A DNA stretch of 34,281 nt, from the NCBI GenBank assembly GCA_964392445.1, contig CAYMPD010000012.1, positions 1 to 34,281 of the forward strand, in the 5' to 3' direction. This DNA comes from an uncultured archaeon. GTDB lineage: Archaea; Aenigmatarchaeota; Aenigmatarchaeia; CG10238-14. Numbering within the stretch: the first letter of the stretch is position 1; each line of letters begins with the position of its first letter. The position numbers and the translations under genes are program-made. Positions 6,001-34,281 of the stretch are shown one piece after another. Under the pieces are notes generated by a model. That model was not told where the DNA came from, did not search any database, and was given only the letters and a program-made list of their open reading frames with translations.

Positions 6001-9000
6001 CCCCTGCCACGGGCCTTGTGAGGTCAATAACAACCGACGATAACTACGTGTATATAGGAGGTTATGATGACAAAGTCCACGTAGTAGCCAAAAACTCCAC
6101 CTGGGATAACATCACCGCCCTCACCCCAGCCACTAGTAATGTGGATTCAGTAACAACCGACGATAACTACATCTACATAGGTGGTAGTGATGATCATGTT
6201 CACATAGTAGACAAAAGACAATCCCTAACCTACTACCATTCACCAGTCGACAACCCTCAGTCCTTGGGATTAATGTCCGATGGCGACCAGCATCAATTGA
6301 ACTGGACTTTAAACGCAACTGGTTCTCTTGAAATGTACTTAATAGATGCTAACTTTACTTCCTCCGTTAGTGATCTCGCAGAGAATAATACTAACAATAA
6401 TTACATCTGTATAGGTGGTGAATGTATTCCGGGTCCCAAATGGTCAGAAAATAAGACATTTCCATTAACTCCACAAACATATACTTCAGAATCAAACTAT
6501 CAATTTAACGTAACATGGATTGATGATGCAGGGTTGGACACAATCTTCATAGAACACAATTTCACTGGTACAGCCACACCTCATAACGATAGTTTCACCG
6601 GTAATAATGGAGATGAATACTATTTCTCTATCTCTGATTTAGGCGTAGGTACTTATGTTTGGAGGTCATTTGCGAATGATACTAACGGAGAGGGGAATGT
6701 CACTGATCAATGGAATTATACTGTCACTCAAGCAGATTCAGAACCAGGGATGGTACTAACCCTAGATGCAAGTTCCTCCTCATTACAAAACAGGTTATAT
6801 CCAAACAGAACCAATATTCAGGTCTCTGAATCAAACATAGGCGATGGAGGTTGCTCTTATCTATTAGCAGAAAATGGAACTAGTGTAAGTAATGGCACCA
6901 AAAGGCTTGCTGCAAGAAGTTATAACTTCACCTACAACACAACAGGTTGTCAAAATTATACGGATGCTCATAGAGAGATCATATTAATTGTTGGCAAAGG
7001 AGTAGCTCACATCACAATTTCCGGTGTCAGCAATGGGACATATCCAATATCTCAGAATATATATTTTGAGATAAACGATACAAATGGATTAACGGGTTCT
7101 ATTTACTACAATGGAACCATGTTTACCAATAATACCAATCCTGATTTGGGTGCGGGGCTCTGGAATATAACAGCTTATACTTCCGGTAATGAGAATTATA
7201 CTTCCGATTTGACTACATCTTGGAATCAGATTTCTAAGGGGACAAGTGGAGTATCGCTTTTCATCAACGGAACAGAAGGGAACGTTAATATATACAATAA
7301 TACGGCTGTGAACATAACTGTGGTTAATAATGTATCAAGTACAACTGTTTTTATGAACACCAATAGAACGAAATGGTCTCCCTCATCTGATACAACACCT
7401 TATGAAAATACATCAGAAATCATGTATTCTACAGTGGGAGCTAAAATTAATGTTACAGGTTGGTGGGGTGGTAATGAGAACTACACCAGTGATGACCAGA
7501 CGTATTACATTACTCTAGTAGATGAAATAGGTCCACTCTGGAACGAAACTATTGGTTACCTAGATAGCAACATAAGCAATCCTAATCAAGACGAACCAGT
7601 TCTCCTTTACAGTATGGGTTATGATGATACAGCTTTAGATTGGGCTATTCTTTCAACCAATGAAACTGGTAGCTGGGAAAATAAAACTTCTTACTCTTCT
7701 CCTATGGATATGTCCGACACAGCGGTAACGTGGACATGGTCCAACTTCACTTGGAAGAACTCCTCTCTTGTTAAAGGAACAGTAGTTGGATGGAAGGTTT
7801 ATTACAACGACACTAGTGGAAATGAAAATGGGACTGATATTAAGACATTTACAATTAATCAAAATCCAAAGTGGTTAAATAACCTAACATTTCCATTAAC
7901 TCCACAAACATATACTTCAGAATCAAACTATCAATTTAACGTAACATGGATTGATGATGCAGGGTTGGACACAATCTTCATAGAACACAATTTCACTGGT
8001 ACAGCCACACCTCATAACGATAGTTTCACCGGTAATAATGGAGATGAATACTATTTCTCTATCTCTGATTTAGGCGTAGGTACTTATGTTTGGAGGTCAT
8101 TTGCGAATGATACTAACGGAGAGGGGAATGTCACTGATCAATGGAATTATACTGTCACTCAAGCAGATTCAGAACCAGGGATGGTACTAACCCTAGATGC
8201 AAGTTCCTCCTCATTACAAAACAGGTTATATCCAAACAGAACCAATATTCAGGTCTCTGAATCAAACATAGGCGATGGAGGTTGCTCTTATCTATTAGCA
8301 GAAAATGGAACTAGTGTAAGTAATGGCACCAAAAGGCTTGCTGCAAGAAGTTATAACTTCACCTACAACACAACAGGTTGTCAAAATTATACGGATGCTC
8401 ATAGAGAGATCATATTAATTGTTGGCAAAGGAGTAGCTCACATCACAATTTCCGGTGTCAGCAATGGGACATATCCAATATCTCAGAATATATATTTTGA
8501 GATAAACGATACAAATGGATTAACGGGTTCTATTTACTACAATGGAACCATGTTTACCAATAATACCAATCCTGATTTGGGTGCGGGGCTCTGGAATATA
8601 ACAGCTTATACTTCCGGTAATGAGAATTATACTTCCGATTTGACTACATCTTGGAATCAGATTTCTAAGGGGGTACCTACATTTTCGACATTCATTTTCT
8701 CTCCGATCGCCTATGAAACACTATCTAATTACTCAGGTTCAGAGTCCAATAGTGGTGATTCGGACTGCACCTACACTCTACTAAGGAATGGTTCATCAAT
8801 CGGAACAGGATCATCAATCTCCGATAGAGATTTACTAGGTGTAAGAGCGTACAATTACACCTACTATACTGATGGTTGTACAAATTTTACTGTAAGTCAG
8901 GATGAACAAATATTGGAGGTAAACCAAAAAATACCCAACTGTACACTTTATATCAATGGTTCAACAGAAAATCAATCATACTACTCTGGACAAATAGTGA

Positions 9001-10835
9001 ATTTTACGGGATACATCGATACAAATTACGGGACAACAATTCACTTAGACTTGAATGGTACGGGTTACGGTGAGGAATTTATATCTGGAAATGATTCAGT
9101 TATTGAGAATTTAACTGACACTCATGTTTTGAATGTCGGAAAAAAATATAATATAACTACCCATTTCAATGGAGATCAAAATTATACTGCTTGCCTTGAT
9201 ACGAGCTACCTAACTATGAAAAACTCCTTAATAAATTTCTCTTTAATAGAAGAACCAACTGATCCATCAACCTACTCACCCAGCCGATCATACCAATTCA
9301 ACATAACTGTGACAGACCCAGATACTGAACCTAGTATAGTTTATATAGAATTCAATAATACTACAGGAACATTAACTGATCTCAACAATTTCACAATGTC
9401 AAATGAATCATCTGAGTATTATAAAACGTTCGATGGACTCCCAGCAGGTGTGTATAACTACAAATTCTACGCCAATGACACCCTCGACGATTGGAACTCC
9501 ACAGGACAATATGACTTTACAATTAATCCGGCAATAACCACAACAACAATAATGAGTACGGGTGGTGGAGGTGGTACATCAGCATATAAGATAGATCCAA
9601 ATAAAGAAATATTATATTTCACGATAATAGTCCCAGAAACACCTGCCAAGAGAGAGTTGACTAATACTGAAATTGGAATCAAAGAAATAGAAATCTCTGT
9701 TAAAAGTAGGGCAAGAAATGTTAAAATAACCTTAGAAAAACTGGATAAAGAGTTAAGCTGTTATGGATATAGAGTATCTGGAAAGAAGTACAGTCAAGTT
9801 AATATAACAAAAATTAATATTGAGAATGATAAAATAGAATCTTCAAAATTACGATTTCCCATTAGTAGATCCTGGGTTATTAGAAATAATATAAATCCAG
9901 ATACGATTCATCTATATAAATGTACATCCGAAGGATGGAGAAAACTACCAACTAAGCGAACAGATGAAACTGATGATTCTTTATATTATGAGAGTGAATC
10001 TAAAGGGTTTTCAGTATTTTCTATAGTCGCAGAAGAGATAATAACAAACACTACTACAACCTCGAAAAAAATGATCACGACAATTCTTACTAGTTCCACA
10101 ACCACAATATTAGAAGAGCGAGAATATCATTCCAAAAATAGAATTTATATAGTATTATCATTAATTTCTTTGTTAAGTGTATTAATTATAGTTTGGATTA
10201 TATTGAAAAATCGCAGAGATAGAAAGACACAAAAAATACTAACTAGGCTTCAAAATATCAACAAAATCTTGGAAAGAAAAGGTGGTTTATTAGTTTTGTA
10301 TAAAATATATCCTCAGATCAAAAAAATAGAGAATCTATCTTATAAACTAGTAAAAACCCATTTAAGTGAACAACAAATATCTAACCTTAAAGAGGATTTA
10401 ATTGAAATTGAAAATAATTTAGAAAATACGGTTAGTATTAACATAGAAGAGATAAAAGGCGAACTTCAAGATGCAAGTCTCCTGCTTAAAGAGGGACATG
10501 AATTATCGATTTTATATAAATCTTGGAAACATATTAAGAAGGCTGAACTTTTATCAAAGCAACTAATAAAAAACAGGAAAGTTGAAATAGAAAATTCGAT
10601 AATGAAAAAAGAGGAAAGATTTCTGAATGAAATTGACGTAATTGAAACTGAAGCTGGAAATCTCAAAAATGCTGGAATTGATACTAGAGAAATAATAGAT
10701 AGACTTCAAACTGCCAAAGAACTTCTTAAAGACCCGAAACCACTGAAAATCTTTAGAGCTGAGACCCAAATTAAAAGAGCCAAAAAATTAACAGAGCACT
10801 ATATTAAACAACAGGAAAATAAGGAAGAAGATTAG
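3..10835 (+). CDS. Giant multidomain cell-surface protein (>3,600 aa, 5'-partial): repeated Ig-like modules, 5-repeat beta-propeller, parallel beta-helix (NosD/PbH1-like), two 7-blade beta-propellers, PGF-pre-PGF-like domain, Thr-rich linker, TM helix, ~210-aa cytoplasmic tail
   Basis: The frame is open from nt 3 (YTSGARTVFVTFD..., which resembles the internal NYTSGMRTLFVEF), so the GTG at 24 is not the true start. It has dense N-x-S/T sequons, repeated modules, W..LPT...YYESESKGFSVFSIV (PGF-pre-PGF-like) and a TM helix IYIVLSLISLLSVLIIVWIIL. Confidence 0.9.
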   Translation, partial: YTSGARTVFVTFDQDAPKWSDNRTSIQTPLTYIPDQSYQFNITWTDDIDLDTVFIEHNFTGSSTPHNDSFTGSNGEEYYFDAQDLAAGTYVWRSFANDTSGNDNVTDQWTYTIERRSPMNTILAANNMTITAGGSYSGFDTPWVSDSGIVSNLTDIGGYSAPAVFNKDGTWYLITGKSLGTFEGKRWSTSESNWTDDLSIISGLGDVGYYSAPAVFNKDGIWYLVAGNDSGHFSGFSWTGLNPYWQSNSGITSGLPDVGSDSKPTVFNMDGTWYLISGGKSGVFYGFNWTGSSWQSDSNINASLGDVGSHSAPAVFNKDGTWYLISGEDDGDFKGYNWTGSSWQSDSDINVSLGDVGSNSTFTVFNKNGLWYSIAGNGEGTFNGYNLTESLTVQTGYQVLGYENNTGDSGCNYTLYRNGTLTNNPNTSYTPSYYNYSYHTSGCSNYTSGMRTLFVEFTDQISPKSRNQGTNDTDNIINRGSAINLTAQGYDNSALDYAILSTNETGIWQNYTDGTHGSPIDMGDVSQTWSWSNFTWENSSISSKTTVGWKIYYNDTSGNENGTEIHTFRINCLVPSENLIINDNVFLCSGIYYLNDTDENGVLLINSSDMIIECNKTVLEGNYTESSIGINHTKGFDNVTIKNCEINKYDTGIYLKNTNNNTVRNNNFTNNDDDILIWDSNDNLLKDNILYNSSGSGIYLYTGSNNTVRNNTITESGNGIQIYHASENIVLNNTINATSGIGVYIGYISSSNNILENNTITYSDSYGIGDFDESENTTIRYNNLEHNSYGLYLYDPGNNTTITQNNISSNTYGVMFDDQEKTDRIMRLNNNTIFDNEIGLYIDFSTNIFVKGGSIHGNTEYDYYLKYVSSLWDYEIINNTFRNTNFTSSRKIYFNDTNVWFYYNNDPLDGIWLNTSLNQGRENITRRIISWNESLVQWTDSGNSNANYTLSGMKTSTKYSIFNNSIYFDTKTTDVDGILPRFSVNLSSEHEIKVEEDTESPLWNDTNGYLGSNMSTPSQGDAVLLHSMGYDGSALDWAWMETNETGQWRNYTYIEDDSEDANACCNNTDCGLNCSNAYDEDWGTLLVPDCEDTWYVYENHTIPPHIKSGRWKTRGAGYFGSDVIVYVRNSTGWQEIGRIEESEKNLTIDIPSDVFSLDVLQIKTEINDTSCLLGGGTSYYYEGMALWRPYKSPMYMNDASQIWSWSNFTWENSSISFGSTVGWKIYYNDTSGNENGTDIKTFIITDSIMPQYSNNSTNTTSPDEGSSVKISSNWTDNVGLDIAWLSTNETGQWENYSYSAPSGYRPININTTAGESWSNFTWQNTSLSAGDVVTWKIFANDTYGNENVTGESTFTLIKRWLEVNLTTPRNFTSTSPYNVNQNDTFSVSATIKCRSTPSGYSCNDVYGGIRYNGSSPTEPDTMVNTSEGDKPFYLVNIFEDTWRNVTSLTPSTDDVYSIEIDENYLYIGNGGSGDEDVYVVAKNSTWDNITTLQVISSDVRSITTDENYVYVGGYGNDVKVIKKNSTWDNITTLTPATNAVFSITTDDNHVYIGSLDDKVHVVAKNSTWDNITTLTPATNWVYTISTDDNYIYIGGNDDNVHVVAKNSTWDNITTLTPATDSVFSTTTDDNYVYIGGYDDKVHVVAKNSTWDTITTLSQATDYVKSLTTDENYIYIGDDNGEVHIVAKNSTWDTIGTLTLSTSAIESIKTDENYLYIGGRDNKVHVVSKANLAGQHYSDPVGWDRVDSPWVISKPDPMPLTPREEPVDLKQNPVSVMDKNNSVYEDREWGNVTSLTPASTDINSLTTDENYVYIGADDTNVYVYTKNSTWDNLATLTPATSKVNSVTSDDNYIYIGSADTNVYVVAKNSTWSDISTLSYSPSYVDQLVTDDNYIYIGSGNDDVYVVAKNSTWDNITTLTEPTSGVKSITTDENYVYLACKDDNVYVVAKNSTWNNVNTLNMAFADAEFVATDENYVYMAYSNDNVYVVAKNSTWDNVTTLTPATGLVRSITTDDNYVYIGGYDDKVHVVAKNSTWDNITALTPATSNVDSVTTDDNYIYIGGSDDHVHIVDKRQSLTYYHSPVDNPQSLGLMSDGDQHQLNWTLNATGSLEMYLIDANFTSSVSDLAENNTNNNYICIGGECIPGPKWSENKTFPLTPQTYTSESNYQFNVTWIDDAGLDTIFIEHNFTGTATPHNDSFTGNNGDEYYFSISDLGVGTYVWRSFANDTNGEGNVTDQWNYTVTQADSEPGMVLTLDASSSSLQNRLYPNRTNIQVSESNIGDGGCSYLLAENGTSVSNGTKRLAARSYNFTYNTTGCQNYTDAHREIILIVGKGVAHITISGVSNGTYPISQNIYFEINDTNGLTGSIYYNGTMFTNNTNPDLGAGLWNITAYTSGNENYTSDLTTSWNQISKGTSGVSLFINGTEGNVNIYNNTAVNITVVNNVSSTTVFMNTNRTKWSPSSDTTPYENTSEIMYSTVGAKINVTGWWGGNENYTSDDQTYYITLVDEIGPLWNETIGYLDSNISNPNQDEPVLLYSMGYDDTALDWAILSTNETGSWENKTSYSSPMDMSDTAVTWTWSNFTWKNSSLVKGTVVGWKVYYNDTSGNENGTDIKTFTINQNPKWLNNLTFPLTPQTYTSESNYQFNVTWIDDAGLDTIFIEHNFTGTATPHNDSFTGNNGDEYYFSISDLGVGTYVWRSFANDTNGEGNVTDQWNYTVTQADSEPGMVLTLDASSSSLQNRLYPNRTNIQVSESNIGDGGCSYLLAENGTSVSNGTKRLAARSYNFTYNTTGCQNYTDAHREIILIVGKGVAHITISGVSNGTYPISQNIYFEINDTNGLTGSIYYNGTMFTNNTNPDLGAGLWNITAYTSGNENYTSDLTTSWNQISKGVPTFSTFIFSPIAYETLSNYSGSESNSGDSDCTYTLLRNGSSIGTGSSISDRDLLGVRAYNYTYYTDGCTNFTVSQDEQILEVNQKIPNCTLYINGSTENQSYYSGQIVNFTGYIDTNYGTTIHLDLNGTGYGEEFISGNDSVIENLTDTHVLNVGKKYNITTHFNGDQNYTACLDTSYLTMKNSLINFSLIEEPTDPSTYSPSRSYQFNITVTDPDTEPSIVYIEFNNTTGTLTDLNNFTMSNESSEYYKTFDGLPAGVYNYKFYANDTLDDWNSTGQYDFTINPAITTTTIMSTGGGGGTSAYKIDPNKEILYFTIIVPETPAKRELTNTEIGIKEIEISVKSRARNVKITLEKLDKELSCYGYRVSGKKYSQVNITKINIENDKIESSKLRFPISRSWVIRNNINPDTIHLYKCTSEGWRKLPTKRTDETDDSLYYESESKGFSVFSIVAEEIITNTTTTSKKMITTILTSSTTTILEEREYHSKNRIYIVLSLISLLSVLIIVWIILKNRRDRKTQKILTRLQNINKILERKGGLLVLYKIYPQIKKIENLSYKLVKTHLSEQQISNLKEDLIEIENNLENTVSINIEEIKGELQDASLLLKEGHELSILYKSWKHIKKAELLSKQLIKNRKVEIENSIMKKEERFLNEIDVIETEAGNLKNAGIDTREIIDRLQTAKELLKDPKPLKIFRAETQIKRAKKLTEHYIKQQENKEED
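429..1170 (+). repeat. Five coding repeats of ~49-51 aa (W.SDS.I...LGDVG..SAPAVFNKDGTWYLISG), probable 5-bladed beta-propeller
   Basis: Five copies are visible in the protein, and nucleotide blocks such as attcagccccagcagtcttcaacaa recur. Confidence 0.8.
4326..5195 (+). repeat. Seven tandem 41-aa (123-bp) WD40/YVTN-like blades, propeller 1
   Basis: Seven copies counted of the consensus WDNITTLTPAT..V.SITTDDNYVYIGG.DD.VHVVAKNST. Confidence 0.9.
5364..6224 (+). repeat. Seven tandem 41-aa (123-bp) WD40/YVTN-like blades, propeller 2
   Basis: Same consensus, seven copies, separated from propeller 1 by a Pro-rich linker of about 56 aa. Confidence 0.9.
6456..7241 (+). repeat. 786-bp direct repeat, copy 1 (262 codons, TFPLTPQ...WNQISKG)
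   Basis: The translation is identical to copy 2, and nucleotide spot checks showed no differences. Offset is 1431 bp. Confidence 0.9.
7887..8672 (+). repeat. 786-bp direct repeat, copy 2
   Basis: Matches 6456-7241, and the sequences diverge immediately after ...tttctaagggg. Confidence 0.9.
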
Positions 10836-12788: not shown

Positions 12789-14387
12789 TCAACCACTCAT
12801 AACTATAAAGTAAATTACTGCGAGTATCATTAACGCGATCACAACCCCGATAACTAGTGAAAGAACCATCTTGTTCATTCCCAGTTCCTCTACCTTTTCA
12901 TTCAGGTTTGAACTTAAATCTGAAAAACTTTCCCAAATTCTACCAAATGCTCCTGTTGGTGGTTTTGTGATATTAACCTCGGGTGGCTCTATTATTACTG
13001 TTTCGGTAGTTGTTGTAATATTTTCTTCATGCTCAGTTACATTCTCTTCAACTGTTGTAGTTAGTTGTTCTTCCAAAATTGTAGTGGGTGTTTCCTCCAC
13101 TGTAGTTGTTGCTCCTGTAATTTCTTCTCCTTCAACATTCACTAAGACTGTTTCACTATCAAACGCGGTATCAGACTCTACTGAAATTTCAACGTTGAAT
13201 TCTCCCAAAGATCCATATTCCGGACTGTAATAAACATAAACCCTCTCAGTCTTATTTGGTAAAACTACTACCTGCTTTGGTCTTATAGCCACCCAAGCTA
13301 CACTAGATTTAATTTCAAATGTGTCAGCTCTTGTCCCTACATTTTTAACAGATGGTTGTGTTAATTTCCCTGTTCCTGCTTGGATTGTTATTTCGTTTAC
13401 ATCCAACTCAAGATCTACACCATAACACTTTTCTACAATAAATTTCACCAAACCTTCTTCCTCCGTTCTCTCCGAAGACACTGAGAATGGTATATCATAA
13501 ACACCTTCTCCTCCCTTAACAAATGTAACTTCAAACTCCTGTACTTGCCCAGGTTCCAGATCAATAATATCTGAAAAACCTAACTCCTCTATATTTACTT
13601 CATAAGTATCTTCTCTTATTCCTGTGTTAAAAACGGATATCTTAAAACTTTCCTCAACATTCGCGCAGGTTCTAACTTCCTCAGGGTAAGTTACTTCAAA
13701 ATCAAAGCATTTCTTTTTGGTAATAACCGAAGAAGCCGACGCTGAGGCATAACTATTGGTTGACTCAACATTTACTTCAAGGGTATAATTTCTCTCTTCA
13801 GTATCACATTCTGCTCGAATGGTAACTGGGATTTGTTTGGACTCGTTTGGCTCTACTGTAAAACTTTCGACTTCCACATCAATTATATCCAAAGCATCTC
13901 CAGATAATGATAATGCTAGATTCTCAGAGTACTTTCCCGTGTTCTCCACAACTATCATTGTTTGATCCTCTTCACATATACACGAGGTTAATTCAGTTGG
14001 TATAAGTAAACTTACACTATGATCTTTGACTATAGTTAACGTAAAATCATCAGAAACACCGTTAATAACAACCTCTCCTAGATAAAAATTCTCTTTACTG
14101 GGTTGAGGAGTAACGAATAAGTAGACTTTCTTAGACTCTCCAGAAGCTAGATCGATTGAATCATGGCTCAAAGAGTACCAATCCTCAGGAATACCCTGAA
14201 CGGAAACAGTATAAGTCTCATCTACCAACCCTTCATTCTCAACTAATATATCATACACAGCTATCTCGTAAGGATTGACTGATAACTCTTCAGGAACAAT
14301 ACTAACTGAAAGATCTGAATCTTGCGCAAAAGCGCCGGCCATTAATAAAAGTCCGAAAATTACACCGAAAATTATTTTTGTTTTCAT
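12789..14387 (-). CDS. Secreted, C-terminally anchored surface protein with ~4 tandem Ig-like (COG1470/NEW3-like) domains and a Thr/Glu-rich stalk
   Basis: Signal peptide MKTKIIFGVIFGLLLMAGAFA, repeats of V.N.G...DTY/F, TTTVEETPTT linker and C-terminal TM. Confidence 0.85.
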   Translation of the reverse strand: MKTKIIFGVIFGLLLMAGAFAQDSDLSVSIVPEELSVNPYEIAVYDILVENEGLVDETYTVSVQGIPEDWYSLSHDSIDLASGESKKVYLFVTPQPSKENFYLGEVVINGVSDDFTLTIVKDHSVSLLIPTELTSCICEEDQTMIVVENTGKYSENLALSLSGDALDIIDVEVESFTVEPNESKQIPVTIRAECDTEERNYTLEVNVESTNSYASASASSVITKKKCFDFEVTYPEEVRTCANVEESFKISVFNTGIREDTYEVNIEELGFSDIIDLEPGQVQEFEVTFVKGGEGVYDIPFSVSSERTEEEGLVKFIVEKCYGVDLELDVNEITIQAGTGKLTQPSVKNVGTRADTFEIKSSVAWVAIRPKQVVVLPNKTERVYVYYSPEYGSLGEFNVEISVESDTAFDSETVLVNVEGEEITGATTTVEETPTTILEEQLTTTVEENVTEHEENITTTTETVIIEPPEVNITKPPTGAFGRIWESFSDLSSNLNEKVEELGMNKMVLSLVIGVVIALMILAVIYFIVMSG

Positions 14388-19716: not shown

Positions 19717-19832
19717 GGGGTCTTGGCTCAACTCGGCAGAGCGTCTGGCTCCAGTACATTTGTACATGGAACTTTGATGTAAAGATGATAGAAGAAACCA
19801 GAAGGTTGGGGGTTCAAATCCCTCAGACCCCA
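19717..19832 (+). tRNA. tRNA-Trp(CCA) with a 42-nt intron at position 37/38 (19755-19796)
   Basis: GGGGTCT/AGACCCC acceptor, GCTC/GAGC D-stem, TCTGG-CT-CCA-G[intron]A-CCAGA anticodon arm, GGGGG-TTCAAAT-CCCTC T-arm, and a relaxed bulge-helix-bulge (CTCC/GAAG). Confidence 0.92.
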
Positions 19833-25535: not shown

Positions 25536-25883
25536 TTATTTTGCTAAGACAATGTTCATTGTAGAGACGTTTATGGTATTTCCATCTTCTACTTTTCTCT
25601 CTTCTGTTCCTATCTCAATCTTTTTCAATTCAAGGTCTGATAGGAATTTGTTTCTGACGACTTCTGCTACATCTACTGCCCTAGAGATCGATCTTCCTCT
25701 AGCTTTTATACTGACCTCATCAGCCTCAACCTCATTAAACTGGGTCATTACAGCAAGGACATAGCTCATAGTTGGTTTTCTACCAACGTAAACCACATTG
25801 TCGTCTTTTTTTGCTTTTGTTTGTTTTTTCTCAGTTTTTTTCTCAGTCTTTTTCTCAGTCTTTTTTGTTTTTTTCTTAGCCAA
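25536..25883 (-). CDS. albA: DNA/RNA-binding protein Alba with Lys-rich N-terminal extension
   Basis: [45 protein letters not shown]; TTG start after GAGGTGA. Confidence 0.93.
25824..25859 (-). repeat. 3 x 12-bp tandem repeat encoding (KTEK)3 in Alba
   Basis: ttttttctcagt / ttttttctcagt / ctttttctcagt on the + strand. Confidence 0.85.
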
Positions 25884-26017: not shown

Positions 26018-27604
26018 TTAAGGACATTCTGGATGAGGTAAACTTGGGTTTTTTTTTCTAGCGTAGTCGTATACAAAACATACATATTTTCTTGTTGATG
26101 GATATTCTATCGGGCAACCCCATCCATTATATCCCCTTACAGCCCTCATCCAAGGGTCAGCGTAAGAGTATCCACAATCTAATGGATCGTAATTCTCATC
26201 TTTATTCTTGAAAGCATTGTATTTCCCCAAAAGAACTCTCTTACCACATTCTATATTATCTTCCCAGTCTGTTAAATCCAAATCTGAACAATAACTCGCG
26301 GCTGTGCTGGGATAGACTTGCATTATTCCAGTCGATCCTAAAGGACCTGAGACCACACCATAGTCTCTGCAATGACTCGCTCCACTTTCCTGCATAGCTA
26401 TTCCCCAAAGTAGATAATCTGGAAAATCAGGATAGTCTAATTGTATCTCTTCTTCTTTCTCTCTTATTTTCGCCTCAATATCCCCCTGATAACAAGCACC
26501 CGAACCTTCTTCTTCGCATTTTTTCTGGCAACCTGTCACAGTTGGATCATTATAATTATATGTTTTATCACAAGTATTTCCCGAACCAGAAGCCGTTTTA
26601 CGGTCACTAACATAGATATCGTTATTGGAAGATCCACAAACTGTATTATCTATGAGTTCGTTATCGTTTTTTCTGACTATAAGCCCATTGGTTAAAGCAG
26701 AAAATACCTTATTTCCTTCGATCCTATTTAATTTTGATTCAATATCTATTCCCCGCCCGAAGTCACCCTCAAATTCTCTTATAGTATTTCCTATTATCTC
26801 ATTATTACCCTTAAAGAGAATAATTCCCACGTTAGTTTGTTTTATCTCATTATTTTCTATTCTGTTAGAAGATGAATCTATTTTTATTCCCGTCAAAAAT
26901 TCTTCTATTTCACAATTTTCAATAACTGTGTTATCAGATGAAATCACTATCCCTATACCTCTATGTGAACCTAAACCTTGGATATTTCTATGATTACAAT
27001 CTAAAGTGGCCCCAGTTGAATGAATTTCAAAGCAATTTTTGCTACCAAAAGCGTCTCCCCCAAGAAGATCTTCCTCATTAAGACTTCTCTTTAGTCGATA
27101 ATATCCAGGTTTATTTATCTTCTGACAAGTATCAAGCTCAATTACTTCAACGGTTTCTTTTAAATTAAACTCAACAGACATTGATCCCACATGAACATCA
27201 TCCCCTGAATATCTTATCGCTACGGGAGATTTAAGGCCCGGCTCGAAATCCTTACCAACTAACCATTCCTTATTTTGATCTAAATCAACAATTTTAATGG
27301 AATAGCCTATCTCTGGGTAACTTATTTCTGAAAATAATTCTGGTCTAGAAGCAAGATTATCAAGCTTTTCTTTATCTAAAACTCCGCGATGTACGATTGA
27401 ACTACTAACATAAGCCAACTTATCCGATGATAACAAAGCGTTGGTTAAAGTTATTTTTCTTCTTATTAGTTCATTCTCTTCTACTCTTACCTCAACTTCC
27501 TTTCCTCTGGTCATAAAAAGAAATACAAAAAGCCCTATTACACCTATTACCACTAAACCTACGAGCACATCTGAAAGACTGGTTGCCTGAGCTTTGTTTC
27601 TAAT
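26018..27604 (-). CDS. Prepilin-like protein - parallel beta-helix - C-terminal lytic transglycosylase (SLT) domain; probable ATT start
   Basis: In-frame RNKA|QATSLSDVLVGLVVIG (class III signal) lies upstream of the tracked GTG. PbH1 repeats follow, then SLT motifs GIAMQES, GIMQV, DNIECG and AVRGYNG. Confidence 0.85.
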   Translation of the reverse strand: MRNKAQATSLSDVLVGLVVIGVIGLFVFLFMTRGKEVEVRVEENELIRRKITLTNALLSSDKLAYVSSSIVHRGVLDKEKLDNLASRPELFSEISYPEIGYSIKIVDLDQNKEWLVGKDFEPGLKSPVAIRYSGDDVHVGSMSVEFNLKETVEVIELDTCQKINKPGYYRLKRSLNEEDLLGGDAFGSKNCFEIHSTGATLDCNHRNIQGLGSHRGIGIVISSDNTVIENCEIEEFLTGIKIDSSSNRIENNEIKQTNVGIILFKGNNEIIGNTIREFEGDFGRGIDIESKLNRIEGNKVFSALTNGLIVRKNDNELIDNTVCGSSNNDIYVSDRKTASGSGNTCDKTYNYNDPTVTGCQKKCEEEGSGACYQGDIEAKIREKEEEIQLDYPDFPDYLLWGIAMQESGASHCRDYGVVSGPLGSTGIMQVYPSTAASYCSDLDLTDWEDNIECGKRVLLGKYNAFKNKDENYDPLDCGYSYADPWMRAVRGYNGWGCPIEYPSTRKYVCFVYDYARKKNPSLPHPECP

Positions 27605-27614
27605 ATTTATTACC

Positions 27615-28037
27615 TCAAGTTCTGGTTATACTTAGTAAAAGTTCGTCATTAACATAATATTTTTCTTGATTTTCTTCGATTGTTTTTTTAATTGTAAATT
27701 CATCAATATCTGAAAATGATCCTTTTAAATCGATTAGAATCGGGCTTGAAGCTTCTTCCTCCTCCCCATTTTTTGAAACTGTAACTTTTCTTTCATCAAT
27801 ATCAACATCATAATTAACTCCGAGAGGTATTTCGTAATCAATCGTAATATTACTCGAACTGGCGACGGTTATTGAAATTAAACTTGCTAAATCTTTAGAG
27901 ACAACCTCAGGGGAGGAGAAAGCAAAAGATTCTATTGCATCCCTAATAATAGGCATGATCACTGGAATTAAGGCTACTAAAACAACAATAATACCAATCC
28001 AAGTTAGTATCTCAGTTACTTCTGCTTGTCCTTTCAC
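27615..28037 (-). CDS. Archaeal type IV pilin-like protein (class III signal peptide)
   Basis: MKG|QAEVTEILTWIGIIVVLVALIP. Confidence 0.85.
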   Translation of the reverse strand: MKGQAEVTEILTWIGIIVVLVALIPVIMPIIRDAIESFAFSSPEVVSKDLASLISITVASSSNITIDYEIPLGVNYDVDIDERKVTVSKNGEEEEASSPILIDLKGSFSDIDEFTIKKTIEENQEKYYVNDELLLSITRT

Positions 28038-28101
28038 AATTAATAGAATGGATTTTTGATAAGTTAAATATTATAAAAAAGAAAAATATTGTTGGATAGA
28101 A
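28038..28101. promoter_or_regulatory. 64-bp AT-rich divergent promoter region between the pilin/SLT and lipoprotein/NlpC units
   Basis: Head-to-head genes with TATA-like ttaaatattataaa; the exact elements are not resolved. Confidence 0.45.
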
Positions 28102-29016
28102 ATGAAAGGAAAGTTAATTGGCATAAGTATTCTATTAGTGATGTTATTTTTACTTGGTTGTACAGAGGAGACCACTAATGAATGTAGCAACGAAGGTTTG
28201 GTAATTAGCGATTATAATATTGATACTTCTGGTAGAATATTTCCTGGTTATAGGGTTGGAATTAATTTTTGGTTAGAAAATAAAGGGAGTTCCGATGCTG
28301 AAGATATTAAGGTTTTGTTCTTTGATAGACAGGGGTTTGAACTGGAAAGTATTAATTGTGGGGAAGAGAATGGTAAGATAACAAGTGAAGGTAAATTAAT
28401 TGGTTGTGAAATAAATAAAATAGAAGCTAGGGAAAATTGTTATGGGGCAAGACGAGGTATTCATGCCACCCTAAGAGCCCCAGAAGAGTCTGGTGAGAGG
28501 ATCGTTAGTTTTTCAGTGGATTATATGTATGGTGGTAATTCAAAATTATTATTCCGTATATGGGAAAAAGGTACAGAAAAAAAGCAAGTAGGTAAAAAAC
28601 AGGAAGGTAGTAGTTATGGTCCTGTCAAAGTCGATATAGATACTGATTTTCTACTGGAAAGATTTGTAGAGGGAGAAAGAGAAGTGGTGACTGAATGGGT
28701 AGAAGAAGGACAAAGATTTACAGTAAAATTAAATGTTAAAGAAGTTGGAAGTGGAAGTAAATATCAAACTTTCGAAAATAAAATATTTCCAACAGATTTT
28801 GAAGTTAAACTAGATTATGTCGAGATAGAAAATAGAGATAATTGTGACTTCCCTAATGGACATCCTAAAGAAGAGATAGAATATCCAACTGATGAGCCCC
28901 TTATGTGCGAACTAAAAGTTAATAATATAGGTCAAGACTGGGTTACCGGGTCTATAGAAGTCGATTATATTTATGATTATGGTATAGTTAAATCTCAAGA
29001 ATTTACTATTGAATAA
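28102..29016 (+). CDS. Lipoprotein with two probable beta-sandwich domains
   Basis: MKGKLIGISILLVMLFLLG|C lipobox, paired Cys residues and VDY.Y motifs. Confidence 0.8.
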   Translation: MKGKLIGISILLVMLFLLGCTEETTNECSNEGLVISDYNIDTSGRIFPGYRVGINFWLENKGSSDAEDIKVLFFDRQGFELESINCGEENGKITSEGKLIGCEINKIEARENCYGARRGIHATLRAPEESGERIVSFSVDYMYGGNSKLLFRIWEKGTEKKQVGKKQEGSSYGPVKVDIDTDFLLERFVEGEREVVTEWVEEGQRFTVKLNVKEVGSGSKYQTFENKIFPTDFEVKLDYVEIENRDNCDFPNGHPKEEIEYPTDEPLMCELKVNNIGQDWVTGSIEVDYIYDYGIVKSQEFTIE

Positions 29017-29047
29017 AGTTATAATTGCGTTTTTCTAAAATAGTCTT

Positions 29048-31144
29048 ATGACGAAATGTTCTAAGTGTGGAACTGAATTTGATCATGGTATCTGTCCTAA
29101 CTGTGGATTTACCGAAGGTGGAGTTTATGTATCCAATCCTAAAAAAGTTATAAATGAGAAAAAACAGGCTGAAAAAAAACTAGAAGATATGAGAAAGCAG
29201 GAAGAAAAGGCTAGGGAACAGAGGCTAAAGCAAATTAAAGCTCGAGAAAGAGATAGAAAAGGGGAGATTCAAAATCTTCAAGAGAAAGATGAAAGAGAAT
29301 ATAAAAGAGAGAAAGAGAGTCTGTCGAAAGAGGCAAAAAAAATTTGGGAAGGTCAAGAAGAACTGGATCAAGAGAGAAGAAGAATTAGAAGAGAGTCAAG
29401 AAGGGAACAATGGAAAAACAGAAAGAAAGCAGTAAAAAGATTAGCAATAGGAGCAGGAGCAACGGCAGCGGCAGGAGGAGCAGCATCTAAGCGTCAACAA
29501 CCACCACCTCCACCACCAGCATATAAAAAACAATCTCCACTTGTAAAGTATCTAGGTATTATAGTTATAGTTGGTGCATTAGGTTTAGTTGTATACTTTC
29601 ACCAAGATGAAGTTTCGAGTATTTGGTATGGGTTTTCTAGTTCCATAGGAGGGATGTTACCGGGAGATTTTGATCTATTTATTAAATGTATTACTTTTCA
29701 AGTCGATGATATGAGTGTTTGTTGGGGAGGTAAACCACCGGAACCTATTGTTAAACATCAAGTTATCGATATAAGTTTTGAAAATGGTAGAGGACCTAAA
29801 GCACCAATTACTGGTGAACCATATTCTGTGTTGGTTGAAGTAAAAAATTTACTTGAAGATACTACTATTGATGGTATTACTATTCACGGGCAATTAGAAT
29901 GTGAGGTGGAAGAGACAGATGAGGGTTGGGGTGATATTGAAGGTAACGAAAACAGAGATATAGAACTTATACCATTAGAAGAATCTTATCAACTCCCCCC
30001 AGAAGGTGTTAGAACTTTACTAAAAAGCTACCCATTAAGTTGTGAACTTGTTGCTTGCAATAAACTAAATGTAACAGTAGTTTATCAATACAACAACACA
30101 CTTGAAACACAATTTAGATTTGGAGAAACACGAGAAAAGGCTAAATTCGCTAGAAAAGACAGTGTAGGTCAAGGCCCAATTTCTCTGGAAGCTAGCTTTG
30201 GACCCTATGGGAATTATTACTATCCGAATGAAGGTTATGGGAGTCCCAGTTATATTACTAACAAATTAGATCTAACAATAACCGCAGTTAATAAAGGTTA
30301 TGGGGAAGGGAAATTACTGGATTATAGTTTAGAGAAAAAATACGATGATTTTAATTTTTTAAGTGAGGTCGAACCATGTGAGTTTACTCAATTGGGGGTA
30401 GAATTAGAAAAAGACGATTATGAGAATTGTTATCCTATTTACAGTTTCAGCGAAAGTAGTATAGAAAGCAATCTAAAAAATTATCAATCTGTTTTCTTTG
30501 AGTTCAATGTTGATTATGAATATACTCGTACTTTTAAAAAGAGTTTAGGTGAACTTAAAAGAGGGCCTACTTGCCCGGAAGAACCTGAAGATGGTGAAGG
30601 GAGGAGAACTGGTACAACTATTCCTGAAAATGGTGGAGATAGAACTGATCTAGACTGTCAAAACCATGTTATTAAAATTTCTGAAATTCCATTGGGTGCT
30701 CCATATTCACTTGGAGCGACACATCTCAGAGGGGATGAAATGGCCACCTCTAAAACACCTTTTGACTGTTCTGGTTACACAGAATGGGTATATAACAGAT
30801 ATGGTCATGAAACTAACAAAGGGGATTTGATATCCTACGGTTCTCCAGCTTCCTCACAAGTTAACATTGGTAAGGTAATAGACCATAATCCTCTCATAGA
30901 TCATGATAATTATAAATCCATAGAACCAGATATCAGTAAATTTGAACCTGGTGATTTATTATTTTTCTATAAAACAACGCTAGAATCTCGTATAACTCAT
31001 GTGGGAATTTATTATGGAAATGGTAGGATTATACATGCGGGTCAGCCCGAATGTCCGAGTTCTCTCAGTGGATGTGTACAGAAAGCTAATCTTGATACAT
31101 CTTATTGGAAAGAACATTATATTGGGGCTAGAAGAATTTGTTAA
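29048..31144 (+). CDS. Membrane protein: cytoplasmic Zn-ribbon + charged coiled coil + Pro-rich linker, TM, extracellular scaffold, C-terminal NlpC/P60 peptidase
   Basis: CSKC..CPNCG, TM YLGIIVIVGALGLVVYF, FDCSGY (C574), PGDLLFF, HVGIYYGNGRIIHAG (H651, H663). Confidence 0.88.
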   Translation: MTKCSKCGTEFDHGICPNCGFTEGGVYVSNPKKVINEKKQAEKKLEDMRKQEEKAREQRLKQIKARERDRKGEIQNLQEKDEREYKREKESLSKEAKKIWEGQEELDQERRRIRRESRREQWKNRKKAVKRLAIGAGATAAAGGAASKRQQPPPPPPAYKKQSPLVKYLGIIVIVGALGLVVYFHQDEVSSIWYGFSSSIGGMLPGDFDLFIKCITFQVDDMSVCWGGKPPEPIVKHQVIDISFENGRGPKAPITGEPYSVLVEVKNLLEDTTIDGITIHGQLECEVEETDEGWGDIEGNENRDIELIPLEESYQLPPEGVRTLLKSYPLSCELVACNKLNVTVVYQYNNTLETQFRFGETREKAKFARKDSVGQGPISLEASFGPYGNYYYPNEGYGSPSYITNKLDLTITAVNKGYGEGKLLDYSLEKKYDDFNFLSEVEPCEFTQLGVELEKDDYENCYPIYSFSESSIESNLKNYQSVFFEFNVDYEYTRTFKKSLGELKRGPTCPEEPEDGEGRRTGTTIPENGGDRTDLDCQNHVIKISEIPLGAPYSLGATHLRGDEMATSKTPFDCSGYTEWVYNRYGHETNKGDLISYGSPASSQVNIGKVIDHNPLIDHDNYKSIEPDISKFEPGDLLFFYKTTLESRITHVGIYYGNGRIIHAGQPECPSSLSGCVQKANLDTSYWKEHYIGARRIC

Positions 31145-33153
31145 GATGTTATACAACTTGGTATATATTCAAAATGCATTGGATCAAAACTCGGCCAAAA
31201 CCTCCCACCCCATCTAAATCCTTTATTTTCAAAGGTCTCAACAACTTCTGGTGGTATATCCATGTCGCATGCCATTGATGTAATTACATTTCCCCAGTTT
31301 TGTTGCCAATTAATATCCACGGCTAATCCAAAAGCATGTGGACTTAAAACGCTTGGGTTGTTCACATTATATCTAAAATTAAATCCCCCTGTGTGTGTAC
31401 AATCAAAAGTATAAGTACCACTTGGGAAATCATAAGTTGTTCGACTTTGGAAATATTTATCTGTCAATTCTTCGCTAACTTCTCTATAAAGATTAGCAAC
31501 ATTTTTATGTACTCTAACTGTACAACCGAATAAATTGACTGTTTCTAATTGATCTCTTATTTCTTGTTCCAATTGATCTCTAACAGAAGAGGAAGTATCG
31601 TAAACATCCAAATAAGGTTTTTCTAAATCATGAGTGAATTCGTACATACAATGGGGACTATCACAAGATTCAGAATTAGATGGATTTGTATCCCATATTT
31701 TAATATAAGGGCTAGGTGCGGGATAAGAAACTCCATCTTTTTGATTTCCTATTCTAGCTAAACACTCATTTGAGGGATTATCTGTTATTGGTCTTCCAAG
31801 GGTTCCACATTCAAATCCACCTATTGGTGGTGGTGAAGGATCTCCAGGAGGTTTCCCATTTCCCGTTAAATCTAAAACTTCAACTTCACATTCCTTACTA
31901 TCGGTAACCGCATCAATTTTATGGTCGTAATCATTCCCTGAAAGCACATAGAACTTGAGTATAATCGGTTTGAATTCAACGTCCTTATCATCACCCATCA
32001 CCGGATAAAATTGATTTGACGTATCCTTAATCTCAAACAAAACCCAAGCAGAGGCATAATAATTGTAAGTACAGGTAACATCCTGGAGATAACGATAATA
32101 TTCTTCACAGCCTTCACATAATTCCACTTGGTCTACAGGGTCATGAGTTTCATTATCACAATAACACCCATTGTAAACATCGTAGGTAGGTAGAGTAACA
32201 AAATAAGGGTTACAGTAATTGATACTAACACATTCTGACTCTAAAGTATATCCTCCCCCGCAATCAACCGAGTAAGTTTCTTTACAACAAGAAGGCTCAT
32301 CCTCAACAACAGCAACATGACTACATTCAGGTTCATAGGAGACAGAAACTTCAAGTAGTTCTATATCCACCTCCACATCATCATTGGTTAACTCATTACT
32401 CAATTCATTTATTTTTCTCTCGATTTCATCCTCAATATCACTTTCCCAATTACCGCTATTAGCACCTAGGATACTTTCAGGATCAAGTTCATTCTCACAG
32501 ATATCACCAACTGAGATTGATTTGGGAACAGCAGCTTCGCCTATTGCTTCTTGAATTTTTTCTTGAATTATATCATTTTCTATGAAGTTTTCCTTTGCCG
32601 TCTTATACATTTCTCCGATGTTTGTTGTCAATGCCGTCTCCAAAGCATCGATTTCAACTGTCGCCCTGTCCCTTTTTAATGATAATTTTTCCCCAGAGGA
32701 AGCTTCAACCCTGATTAAAGAATCGTCTAATATCTCAACCTCAGAATATTCGTACTCGGGTATGTCAACCTCGTTGTTGATTTCCTCCACATAAACCTTC
32801 AGGGCTTCCAGCATCAGTCTCCCAGTGTAATCAAACCCAGGATATTTTTCACTATCATAATCCCTCCAATAAGGAATGCAACCGTAAGAGTCAACACTAC
32901 TACCTAGTTTGTAATAACCACCCATCGGGCTTGTGAGATAAGATGCTTCGTAAAAAGAATATTCCAAAGCTTTTGATAGACCTGTTCTAGAAAGTTCAAA
33001 CTTATTTATCGCATTGATTATGTTTATCTCAAACATTGCTCTTTTTGTAACTACTGTTCTACTGTAAAGCGAGACAAATGCTATTCCTCCGATGACTAAT
33101 GTCCCAAATAGCCCTAGTAACAAAAGTGCTATTGGCCCTATTCCTTTTTTCAA
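31141..33153 (-). CDS. Large prepilin-like protein with Cys-rich insert and C-terminal M15 (M15C/Peptidase_M15_4-like) Zn peptidase
   Basis: MKKG|IGPIALLLLG, with TTG overlapping the upstream TGA and an upstream GGTGA SD. GGFNFR, SPHAFGLAVDIN (H606, D613), FRWGG, DPMHFEY (H660). Confidence 0.88.
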   Translation of the reverse strand: MKKGIGPIALLLLGLFGTLVIGGIAFVSLYSRTVVTKRAMFEINIINAINKFELSRTGLSKALEYSFYEASYLTSPMGGYYKLGSSVDSYGCIPYWRDYDSEKYPGFDYTGRLMLEALKVYVEEINNEVDIPEYEYSEVEILDDSLIRVEASSGEKLSLKRDRATVEIDALETALTTNIGEMYKTAKENFIENDIIQEKIQEAIGEAAVPKSISVGDICENELDPESILGANSGNWESDIEDEIERKINELSNELTNDDVEVDIELLEVSVSYEPECSHVAVVEDEPSCCKETYSVDCGGGYTLESECVSINYCNPYFVTLPTYDVYNGCYCDNETHDPVDQVELCEGCEEYYRYLQDVTCTYNYYASAWVLFEIKDTSNQFYPVMGDDKDVEFKPIILKFYVLSGNDYDHKIDAVTDSKECEVEVLDLTGNGKPPGDPSPPPIGGFECGTLGRPITDNPSNECLARIGNQKDGVSYPAPSPYIKIWDTNPSNSESCDSPHCMYEFTHDLEKPYLDVYDTSSSVRDQLEQEIRDQLETVNLFGCTVRVHKNVANLYREVSEELTDKYFQSRTTYDFPSGTYTFDCTHTGGFNFRYNVNNPSVLSPHAFGLAVDINWQQNWGNVITSMACDMDIPPEVVETFENKGFRWGGRFWPSFDPMHFEYIPSCITS

Positions 33154-33578
33154 TTGATCACCAAAATTAATTTCTCTGTAAGTTTATCTGGGTTGTAGGG
33201 TAAAGATATGAAAGTTTCTTTCTGATATTCGTCGGGATTACAATCTAAAGTCTCTGCTAGGACTTCTGAGGGGGTTGATAGCTTGTAACACTTACTTTCA
33301 ACTAATTTATCCAATTTTTCCATGAGAATTTGTTCTAATTCATTATCATTTGGACTACCAAAAACAAAATGTTCTCCCAGTAATTCATGAACTGTTTTTC
33401 CGTCTTTAGTCGAAGAAAGTAGTGATATAAGAATCATTTGGGAATTGTCGTGCTTTTCTTGATATTGAATTACTTGAATAAGCGGAGCTCTAAAGAACTT
33501 CAAGGGAGCTATTATTCCCAATACGACTACTAGTACTACTATAATACCAATAACTGGTGCGTCAAGGGAACCTTTCAT
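33150..33578 (-). CDS. Pilin-like protein (class III signal peptide)
   Basis: MKG|SLDAPVIGIIVVLVVVLGIIAP. Confidence 0.8.
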   Translation of the reverse strand: MKGSLDAPVIGIIVVLVVVLGIIAPLKFFRAPLIQVIQYQEKHDNSQMILISLLSSTKDGKTVHELLGEHFVFGSPNDNELEQILMEKLDKLVESKCYKLSTPSEVLAETLDCNPDEYQKETFISLPYNPDKLTEKLILVIN

Positions 33579-33597
33579 ACTAAATAGAATTGATTTT

Positions 33598-33873
33598 TCA
33601 GATTATATCTTTACATTCATCCTCACTAGATGGTTTACTTATATCAAATTGTTCACAGCCATCAGGTTCTATTTCATTCCAATCTCCAGGGTCTTTGCCC
33701 TTTAACAACCATCTCTCGCAATAATTGATGTATTTTGCTGTACAACTTGCCTTTGTGGCCTCAGTATCAATTTGCCCTATCCAAAACCAGAGAGAAATAA
33801 TAGTGAAGATGAGAAATAATCCAATAGCCGCTATTAAAAATATAGTATGGGTTGCTATTGCTTTTGGTGGCAT
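33598..33873 (-). CDS. Small pilin-like protein with 4-Cys C-terminal domain
   Basis: MPPKA|IATHTIFLIAAIGLFLIF; C-x7-C-x2-W...C...C. Confidence 0.8.
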   Translation of the reverse strand: MPPKAIATHTIFLIAAIGLFLIFTIISLWFWIGQIDTEATKASCTAKYINYCERWLLKGKDPGDWNEIEPDGCEQFDISKPSSEDECKDII

Positions 33874-33888
33874 GAATTATATTTGACT

Positions 33889-34176
33889 TTACGGAGTTAA
33901 AAGTTCTTCACAATCTGCTTGTGTAACACCAGAAATTATACGTGTACAATCTGCTGCATAATCTGACCAACTACCACTTGGTTTTTTATCAGGGTCATAA
34001 TTACTAACGGACCACTGTGTGCAGAAAGCCATCTTTCTTCCATTACAATATTGTTCTGTTACTGTTCCTCCACCTCTTCCCAACCAAGTCCAAACCAAAT
34101 AACCAAGACCAACTATTACAATTAACCCAACCGCTAATGCCACAATCAGATTTGTTGCTGATATACCTTTTCTCAT
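33889..34176 (-). CDS. Small pilin-like protein with 4-Cys C-terminal domain (candidate major pilin)
   Basis: AAGGTGA SD; MRKG|ISATNLIVALAVGLIVIVG; C-x7-C-x2-W...C...C. Confidence 0.85.
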   Translation of the reverse strand: MRKGISATNLIVALAVGLIVIVGLGYLVWTWLGRGGGTVTEQYCNGRKMAFCTQWSVSNYDPDKKPSGSWSDYAADCTRIISGVTQADCEELLTP

Positions 34177-34281
34177 ATCTTCACCTTAAATTTTATTTTG
34201 GGATTATTAGTTATTAAATGTTATTTAGACTGTGGGACAAAATTCCTAAATAATCATCCCAAGAGAAATAAATTGTGCCAA

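Follow-up and report, generated by a model that had tools for sequence, protein, structure and literature searches.

We analyzed a window of 34,281 nucleotides, which is the entire contig C12 of a 1.2-Mb, 94.9% complete genome of the Aenigmatarchaeota (DPANN), and describe a type IV pilus-type locus at its far end in which archaeal pilin-like proteins bear murein hydrolase modules. Eight genes lie at 26018 to 34176, all at the coordinates given by a first-pass annotation made from the sequence alone. Of the pilin-like proteins, one terminates in a Ply500-like M15 peptidase and another in a beta-helix followed by an SLT transglycosylase, and midway through the locus a conserved lipoprotein/membrane-protein pair contributes an NlpC/P60 endopeptidase. 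On the minus strand, p1 (33889..34176, 95 residues, MRKG/ISAT, the slash marking the predicted cut) and p2 (33598..33873, 91 residues, MPPKA/IATH) are pilin-like proteins with a class III-like N terminus and a four-cysteine head, and p3 (33150..33578, 142 residues, MKG/SLDA) is a third pilin-like protein with such an N terminus, its stop overlapping the start of p4 by 4 nucleotides. The modular pilin-like protein p4 (31141..33153, minus strand, 670 residues) consists of a carrier module (residues 1 to 230, 32464..33153, MKKG/IGP) with a long N-terminal helix followed by a sheet, a Cys-rich middle, a Pro/Gly linker, and an M15 peptidase module, whose Peptidase_M15_4 core (Pfam PF13539) with a His-Asp-His zinc site spans 31165..31356. 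The plus strand encodes the lipoprotein (28102..29016, 304 residues, lipobox LLGC) and the single-pass membrane protein (29048..31144, 698 residues), both already noted in the first-pass annotation; the latter is built, in order, of a cytoplasmic zinc ribbon and Lys/Glu-rich coil, one membrane helix, an outer domain, a linker, and the NlpC/P60 domain (30695..31135, Cys-His-His, Pfam; MEROPS C40). The genes of p4 and the NlpC/P60 protein are convergent, and their stop codons share 2 to 3 nucleotides at 31141 to 31144. Back on the minus strand, p5 (27615..28037, 140 residues, MKG/QAEV) is pilin-like with a class III-like N terminus, and p6 (26018..27604, 528 residues) is a pilin-like protein with a probable ATT start (M-RNKA/QATS), a NosD-type right-handed beta-helix (26543..27013, Pfam PF05048, 35.1 bits), and a C-terminal SLT (GH23) lytic transglycosylase domain (26126..26422, Pfam).

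Five of the window genes begin with M-x(0-3)-[KR]-[GA] followed by about 20 hydrophobic residues, and the six class III prepilin-type N termini proposed in the first-pass annotation are borne out when the sixth, that of the SLT gene, is read from its ATT codon. Applied genome-wide, the same test is passed by 45 of 1433 open reading frames (ORFs), which fall in five clusters, and since this rate is only 3%, six passes among the eight window genes far exceed the background. A positive residue at position -2 is an archaeal hallmark of prepilin peptidase sites (PMC3387779), and the bacterial IPR012902/N_methyl prepilin motif was not matched on the window proteins with Pfam, the signal being of the archaeal type. 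p6 had been listed at 26018 to 27568, starting from a GTG inside the hydrophobic stretch; its frame is open upstream, where it reads RNKA/QATS, and the ATT at 27604 (27602 to 27604, minus strand) lies 7 nucleotides after a Shine-Dalgarno-like GAGGT that overlaps the stop of the preceding gene. The p6 orthologues have ATG starts and read MKG/QATS, MRTKA/QATS, and MKNKG/QATS. These comparisons suggest that p6 most likely starts at the ATT codon, with standard ORF calling setting in 12 codons too late, inside the hydrophobic helix. Other large class III-like proteins of the genome (C5:10921-12345, L036; C5:31251-33044, L037; C10:12520-15156, L038) have VWA domains or a GH43/GH32-like beta-propeller, indicating that the carrier principle is general in this genome and that grafting functions onto pilin-like proteins is a habit of the organism.

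The three hydrolase domains all lie at the C termini of the three large proteins, and each scores above its curated Pfam cut-off: SLT of p6 with 24.2 bits (cut-off, 21.3), behind the NosD beta-helix; NLPC_P60 of the membrane protein with 56.3 bits (cut-off, 23); and Peptidase_M15_4 of p4 with 55.2 bits (cut-off, 25). As delimited here, the C-terminal modules take up residues 540 to 698 of the membrane protein, roughly 370 to 528 of p6, and roughly 440 to 670 of p4. In a whole-genome search, the only matches of the genome to these three families were all within the locus. The SLT motifs E-S, GIMQ (GxMQ), and YNG are conserved across nine homologues, and a profile built from these nine also matches MltC and, in Slt70, places the E-S motif over the ES of RQESAWN, where the catalytic Glu of Slt70 is located. 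In the NlpC/P60 module, the Cys (FDCSG) and the two His residues (THVGIY and HAG) align to the Tn916-type hydrolases 9ubf and 4hpe, to LytE, and to CwlO, with the Tn916-type hydrolases being nearest. Five homologues all keep the M15 zinc ligands, His (SPHAFG), Asp (AVD), and His (DPMHFE), and the M15 profile matches the phage endolysin Ply500, an L-Ala-D-Glu peptidase (2vo9, E 8.9e-5), as well as LysB4. The expectation that the three domains retain intact catalytic residues is thereby upheld. Profile searches were needed for the SLT and M15 comparisons: phmmer of the single SLT module against the PDB gave no match, and the match of the single M15 module to ENP2 in the same kind of search was rejected as spurious.

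Among named homologues, those closest to the 229-residue M15 module (31141..31830, minus strand) are proteins annotated as "M15 family metallopeptidase" from Patescibacteria (candidate phyla radiation, CPR), with 30 to 36% identity, which hints at exchange between ultra-small archaea and ultra-small bacteria. Together with an insertion sequence that has entered the operon (see below), this would fit an inactive relic of gene transfer from bacteria such as Patescibacteria, serving no present function. However, all catalytic residues that were checked are kept in every aligned homologue and all ORFs are intact, and the repeated swapping of the modules for other intact murein hydrolases, described below, indicates selection, so we attach only a very small chance to a relic.

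The contig ends inside the operon. Its last 54 nucleotides (34228..34281) are the left end of a multi-copy insertion sequence, with the 15-nucleotide inverted end GACTGTGGGACAAAA; the element splits the operon and ends C12, and its other end opens contig C13. On C12 and on C13, the element is bordered by one and the same 9-bp target duplication, TGTTATTTA, and since two ends of one insertion sequence thus share their target duplication, we joined C12 to C13. After the insertion sequence, C13 encodes, in order, a 626-residue pilin-like protein, a 69-residue pilin-like protein, a 650-residue membrane protein, and a 748-residue ATPase. Both pilin-like genes pass the class III N-terminus test, giving eight such genes in the joined locus. 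The ATPase has a T2SSE Pfam match, is 77% identical to its orthologue in the same-genus genome G003, and finds its nearest NCBIfam models in FlaI and TadA, with a weak match to BasE. The 650-residue protein, which we take as the platform, has no family in Pfam or NCBIfam, and its profile against PDB sequences returned only noise; compared with the T2SSF (PF00482) proteins of the same genome, it gives an hhalign match of 96.4% (E 1.4e-9). Three Peptidase_A24 (prepilin peptidase) genes lie elsewhere in the genome, on C21, C16, and C26. In the same-genus genomes G001, G003, and G004, the genes follow one another without a break in the order ATPase, platform, pilin-like genes, p1 to p4, the lipoprotein/membrane-protein pair, p5 and p6, Alba, and PCMT. 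p1 has orthologues in the equivalent position in G001, G003, G004, and L041 (a Joint Genome Institute [JGI] contig, 3300018080), and the lipoprotein is invariably paired with the membrane protein, the pair being conserved in G001, G003, G004, G008, and L041. The ATPase, the platform, and the eight class III genes therefore form one locus cut by an insertion sequence, and the archaeal type IV pilus-type locus proposed in the first-pass annotation gains its ATPase and platform just past the contig end and its prepilin peptidases elsewhere in the genome.

With respect to the carrier, a profile of p4 residues 1 to 230 recovered 226 cluster representatives (among 1.8 billion), and the class III motif is present in 127 of the best 150 of them, with most of the others looking like truncated gene calls. 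This exhaustive profile search was used to define the family, as a word-index homologue search with p4 residues 1 to 440 returned three proteins only; the exact p4 protein is not recorded in the contig index. We observe that the enzymes attached to the carrier vary widely. Orthologues of p4 carry SLT+C39_2 (G001), SLT+Amidase_2 (G003 and G004), and SLT+M23 (a JGI contig with the same synteny), and further orthologues carry SLT+M15_4, Glucosaminidase+NlpC/P60, NlpC/P60, or M23. Among 60 long members of the carrier family, the added domains are mostly murein hydrolases (SLT in 7, M23 in 5, NlpC/P60 in 3, and Amidase_2, C39_2, and M15_4 in 2 each). The 12 closest long members all have at least one murein hydrolase module, in varying combinations, and 7 of these 12 combine a glycan cutter with a peptide cutter. 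In the studied genome, the glycan cutter has shifted to p6, and the locus as a whole thereby retains the glycan/peptide pairing.

The other two large proteins show the same variation. In G003 and G004, the orthologues of p6 are pilin-like proteins of 145 to 150 residues with no added module, and the membrane-protein orthologues are likewise bare; the membrane protein carries Peptidase_C39_2 in G001 and M15_4 and SLT in G008. Phylum-wide (371 genomes), the carrier occurs in 83 genomes and SLT in 89, and in 21 of the 29 genomes with both, distant families included, the two are found in one ORF or at most 7.5 kb apart. The link between pilin carrier and murein hydrolase, which the first-pass annotation had put forward for a synteny search, is thus conserved across relatives, with the type of enzyme shuffled. 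This comparative evidence is the strongest result of the analysis: across the sequences compared, the carriers stay the same and the enzyme heads change. On the JGI contig L041, an extra SLT protein of 470 residues (3958-5370, plus strand) is encoded between p4 and the membrane protein, and it has an ordinary Sec-type signal, not a pilin-type one.

The shuffling also bears on what the enzymes might cut. Known DPANN hosts are archaea, chitinolytic enzymes occur among the GH23 fold (3w6b), and the beta-helix of p6 could bind another glycan, so the substrate might instead be pseudomurein or surface glycans of an archaeal host, or the envelope of the organism itself. Against this, at least eight classical murein hydrolase families (SLT, glucosaminidase, Amidase_2, Amidase_6, M15, M23, NlpC/P60, and C39_2) take turns on these carriers, the closest relatives with solved structures or names are enzymes of murein (Slt70, MltC, Ply500, Tn916-type hydrolases, LytE, and CwlO), and no Mur-type ligase, which is required for pseudomurein as well, was found in the genome or in five relatives. 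We consider a non-murein substrate quite improbable.

A wall of its own can be set aside for this archaeon. Searches of the genome, which is 94.9% complete, returned neither Mur_ligase_M nor FtsW/RodA, and five relatives (81 to 97% complete) yielded no Mur ligase, with controls as expected; we therefore reject the reading that the enzymes serve the organism's own murein, a check that the first-pass annotation had called for. The same annotation had raised the possibility of a bacterial or chimeric contig, with a break near Alba. The enzyme families are indeed typical of bacteria, but G+C is even along C12, the N termini with Lys or Arg at -2 are of the archaeal type (PMC3387779), and Alba-PCMT adjoins the same pilin-like genes in four other assemblies, G003, G004, and G035 among them. 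The conserved operon order in same-genus genomes rules out a chimeric contig, and we give virtually no credence to this explanation.

Structure models add a possible subunit contact. AlphaFold2 models the p4 carrier, from 130 homologues, with a predicted local distance difference test score (pLDDT) of 95.1, as a 72-residue N-terminal helix (residues 6 to 77) followed by a sheet and helices; residues 1 to 440 of p4, modeled from a six-row alignment, reached a pLDDT of 50.7 and were unusable. In the Atlas, the clusters nearest to the carrier are unnamed archaeal (Nanobdellota) families, and a row of Bacillota N_methyl pilins gives a template modeling (TM) score of 0.52 (normalized by the length of the row). 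A binding model of p4 (residues 1 to 250) with p3 scores 0.62, compared with 0.00 for the best control, with runs agreeing on at least 79% of contacts and a partner pLDDT of at least 78. The mark of 0.62 is reached by 58 of 80 solved complexes and by 2 of 110 mismatched pairs, counts that are only a rough guide for custom alignments such as ours. In the model, p4 and p3 touch along their N-terminal helices, and the conserved C-terminal strand of p3 also takes part, with residues 50 to 69 and 117 to 127 of p4 predicted to face residues 122 to 134 of p3.

Taken together, we favor, at somewhat better than even, the interpretation that these genes make up the distal half of a conserved type IV pilus-type operon whose pilin-like carriers bear murein hydrolases as "modular pilins" aimed at bacterial walls. 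In such a system, one of the three prepilin peptidases would cut after [KR][GA], and the ATPase and platform would assemble the small subunits into a pilus or a short pseudopilus. p4, bound to p3 via the N-terminal helices, and p6 would enter as minor, probably tip, subunits, and the filament would take the glycan cutter and the stem-peptide cutters across the surface layer of the archaeon and bring them to the wall of a bacterium. The membrane-anchored NlpC/P60 endopeptidase would sit beside the pilus or pseudopilus, and the enzymes would open the bacterial wall locally for attachment, cell access, or feeding. The stronger claim, that type IV pili of Aenigmatarchaeota tipped with exchangeable murein-hydrolase heads pierce the walls of living bacteria, we regard as doubtful; if true, some DPANN would live on bacteria as episymbionts or predators and would have an organelle dedicated to cross-domain penetration.

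Several observations weigh against pilus display. The carrier model resembles solved pilins at values that are all within the noise range (GspK, Z 5.0; PilA4, Z 4.2; PilA5, Z 4.0; PilJ, Z 4.0), VIA-align of the model reached a Z of at most 5.1, and Foldseek against the PDB gave no match at E ≤ 0.001; because the matches to solved pilins are within noise, we regard a pilin fold of the p4 carrier, as modeled, as plausible. Pilin and flagellin models of Pfam and NCBIfam did not match the small proteins (E ≤ 0.1 or 0.01), the sole trace of curated pilin models being a weak N_methyl hit (E 0.017) on the p1 orthologue of G003. The NlpC/P60 protein is not a pilin, so that of the three pilin-fused enzymes originally proposed, two (M15 and SLT) stand on pilin-like proteins and the third is carried by a single-pass membrane protein with its N terminus inside. 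The insertion sequence may uncouple p1 to p4 from an upstream promoter in this strain. We know of no bacterial partner of the Aenigmatarchaeota, and filament display, prepilin processing, expression, murein activity, and a living bacterial target are all inferred from sequence. Furthermore, class III signals also occur on archaeal non-pilus proteins, such as the sugar-binding proteins of Sulfolobus (PMC3387779).

This last point leads to the main rival of pilus display, in which the class III N termini would only anchor the proteins to the surface or build a bindosome-like assembly, and free murein or dead walls would be digested for amino sugars and peptides, with no contact to living bacteria. 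In the Sulfolobus bindosome, such signals on non-pilus proteins go together with a need for a pilus-type ATPase and membrane protein (PMC3387779), and the C13 ATPase does weakly match BasE. Other pilin-like proteins of the genome bear the GH43/32-like glycosidase module mentioned above, and scavenging was left open by the authors of PMC12352652. On the other hand, a full set of small pilin-like proteins, the ATPase, and the platform are kept in one operon across the genus, modeling predicts a pairing of the enzyme carriers with a small subunit by way of pilin-type helices, and membrane-held enzymes under a surface layer would presumably reach insoluble walls poorly. We hold surface-anchored scavenging to be rather unlikely, and the present data do not separate it from pilus display.

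Pilus-borne hydrolases would have parallels in bacteria. Modular type IV pilins are established there, with PilB-vWA and PilC-lectin of Streptococcus sanguinis, CofB, and GspK as examples (PMC8179133, PMC10191384). p4 and p6 have the layout described in PMC8179133, an N-terminal pilin module with a grafted non-pilus module (in p4, after the Pro/Gly linker), and like the bacterial modular pilins, the studied genome also includes VWA-bearing pilin-like proteins. Unlike these, the proteins of the locus are archaeal: their signal is of class III, a Lys or Arg stands at -2, the bacterial N-methylation motif is missing, and the attached modules are murein hydrolases instead of adhesins; the survey of modular pilins in PMC8179133 makes no mention of a peptidoglycan hydrolase or of archaea. 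Bacterial envelope-spanning machines likewise have SLT and NlpC/P60 enzymes inside a surface-machine operon (VirB1-type SLT; Tn916 Orf14-type NlpC/P60, PDB 4hpe and 9ubf), but these enzymes open the producer's own wall, whereas a producer with no wall of its own suggests that the target wall must belong to another cell.

The suggestion in the first-pass annotation that such a locus was new was too strong with regard to its general idea, as murein hydrolases of DPANN and a bacterial partner have been discussed in print (PMC8204110, PMC9723730; see also PMC12352652). The DPANN family fam00969, a "murein-like lytic transglycosylase" (PMC8204110), resembles our locus in that murein-less DPANN have extracellular SLT proteins proposed to bind or degrade bacterial walls. 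Its members are described as giant proteins (up to 3000 residues) specific to Woesearchaeota and Pacearchaeota, with pili or pilins unmentioned (PMC8204110), in contrast to the large proteins of our locus, which are 528 to 698 residues long, belong to Aenigmatarchaeota, and have pilin-like carriers in a pilus operon and peptide-cutting partners. Woldo and Danwoldo, peptidoglycan hydrolases that the archaeon Halogranum salarium secretes and that kill bacteria, also have bacterial-type murein hydrolase domains; unlike the locus proteins, they are soluble Tat-secreted toxins with cell-wall-binding domains (PMC12352652). The survey of that work did not take class III signals into account, and it recognized neither a Sec nor a Tat signal in 68% of the archaeal hydrolases. 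The Sulfolobus bindosome (BasEF, PMC3387779) is a further likeness, with functional, non-structural proteins that bear prepilin-type signals and rely on an ATPase and a membrane protein of the pilus type, but it binds solutes for uptake, whereas the cargo here consists of lytic enzymes alongside many small pilin-like subunits. Among the papers cited here and those that treat DPANN, pilins, and peptidoglycan together, we found none on hydrolases borne by pilin carriers in a pilus operon. What our analysis adds is the Aenigmatarchaeota case, a defined carrier family, the shuffling of its modules, and a predicted contact between carrier and partner.

The hosts of DPANN and the means of reaching into them are largely obscure, and to our knowledge only archaeal hosts have been shown. 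The published lists of DPANN murein hydrolases give no delivery route, and most archaeal hydrolases in the 2025 survey lack a recognized secretion signal. The locus offers a concrete candidate route, combining a prepilin-type signal, a 230-residue carrier module, a small partner subunit, and a pilus motor, with exchangeable enzyme heads that usually pair a glycan cutter with a peptide cutter. The combination of carrier module and hydrolase provides sequence handles for finding such systems in metagenomes, and the locus supplies antigens and probes with which the apparatus could be located and bacterial partners identified in enrichments.

The remainder of the contig is plainly archaeal, in line with the first-pass annotation of the flanking genes. 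The Alba gene (25536..25883, minus strand, Pfam Alba) is the conserved boundary of the locus, and further genes encode Taw1 (wyosine synthesis), two geranylgeranyl reductases, PCMT, kinases of the isopentenyl phosphate kinase type, the mevalonate-pathway enzyme mevalonate diphosphate decarboxylase, and a cis-prenyltransferase. A 116-nucleotide tRNA at 19717 to 19832 (plus strand) was found with Rfam and missed by ARAGORN, and its extra stretch of about 45 nucleotides fits an archaeal intron. A scan for sigma-70 promoters and terminators did no better than on shuffled sequences, as expected for an archaeon. The insertion sequence that ends C12 recurs at other contig ends, with the left-type end at C18 (both ends), C27, and C5 and the other end at C13, C2, C3, C19, C33, and C37; its body is absent from the bin. 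Target duplications pair the contig ends C12-C13, C5-C2, C27-C3, C18-C19, and C18-C37, so they can be used to scaffold the assembly. Finally, C12 encodes two further large proteins outside the pilus-type locus: an ORF of at least 3610 residues (3-10835, plus strand) that runs off the 5' end of the contig, with regions of the right-handed beta-helix and WD40-like types, probably encodes another surface protein, and a 532-residue protein (12789-14387, minus strand) with several Ig-like or fn3-like domains is probably a surface protein as well.

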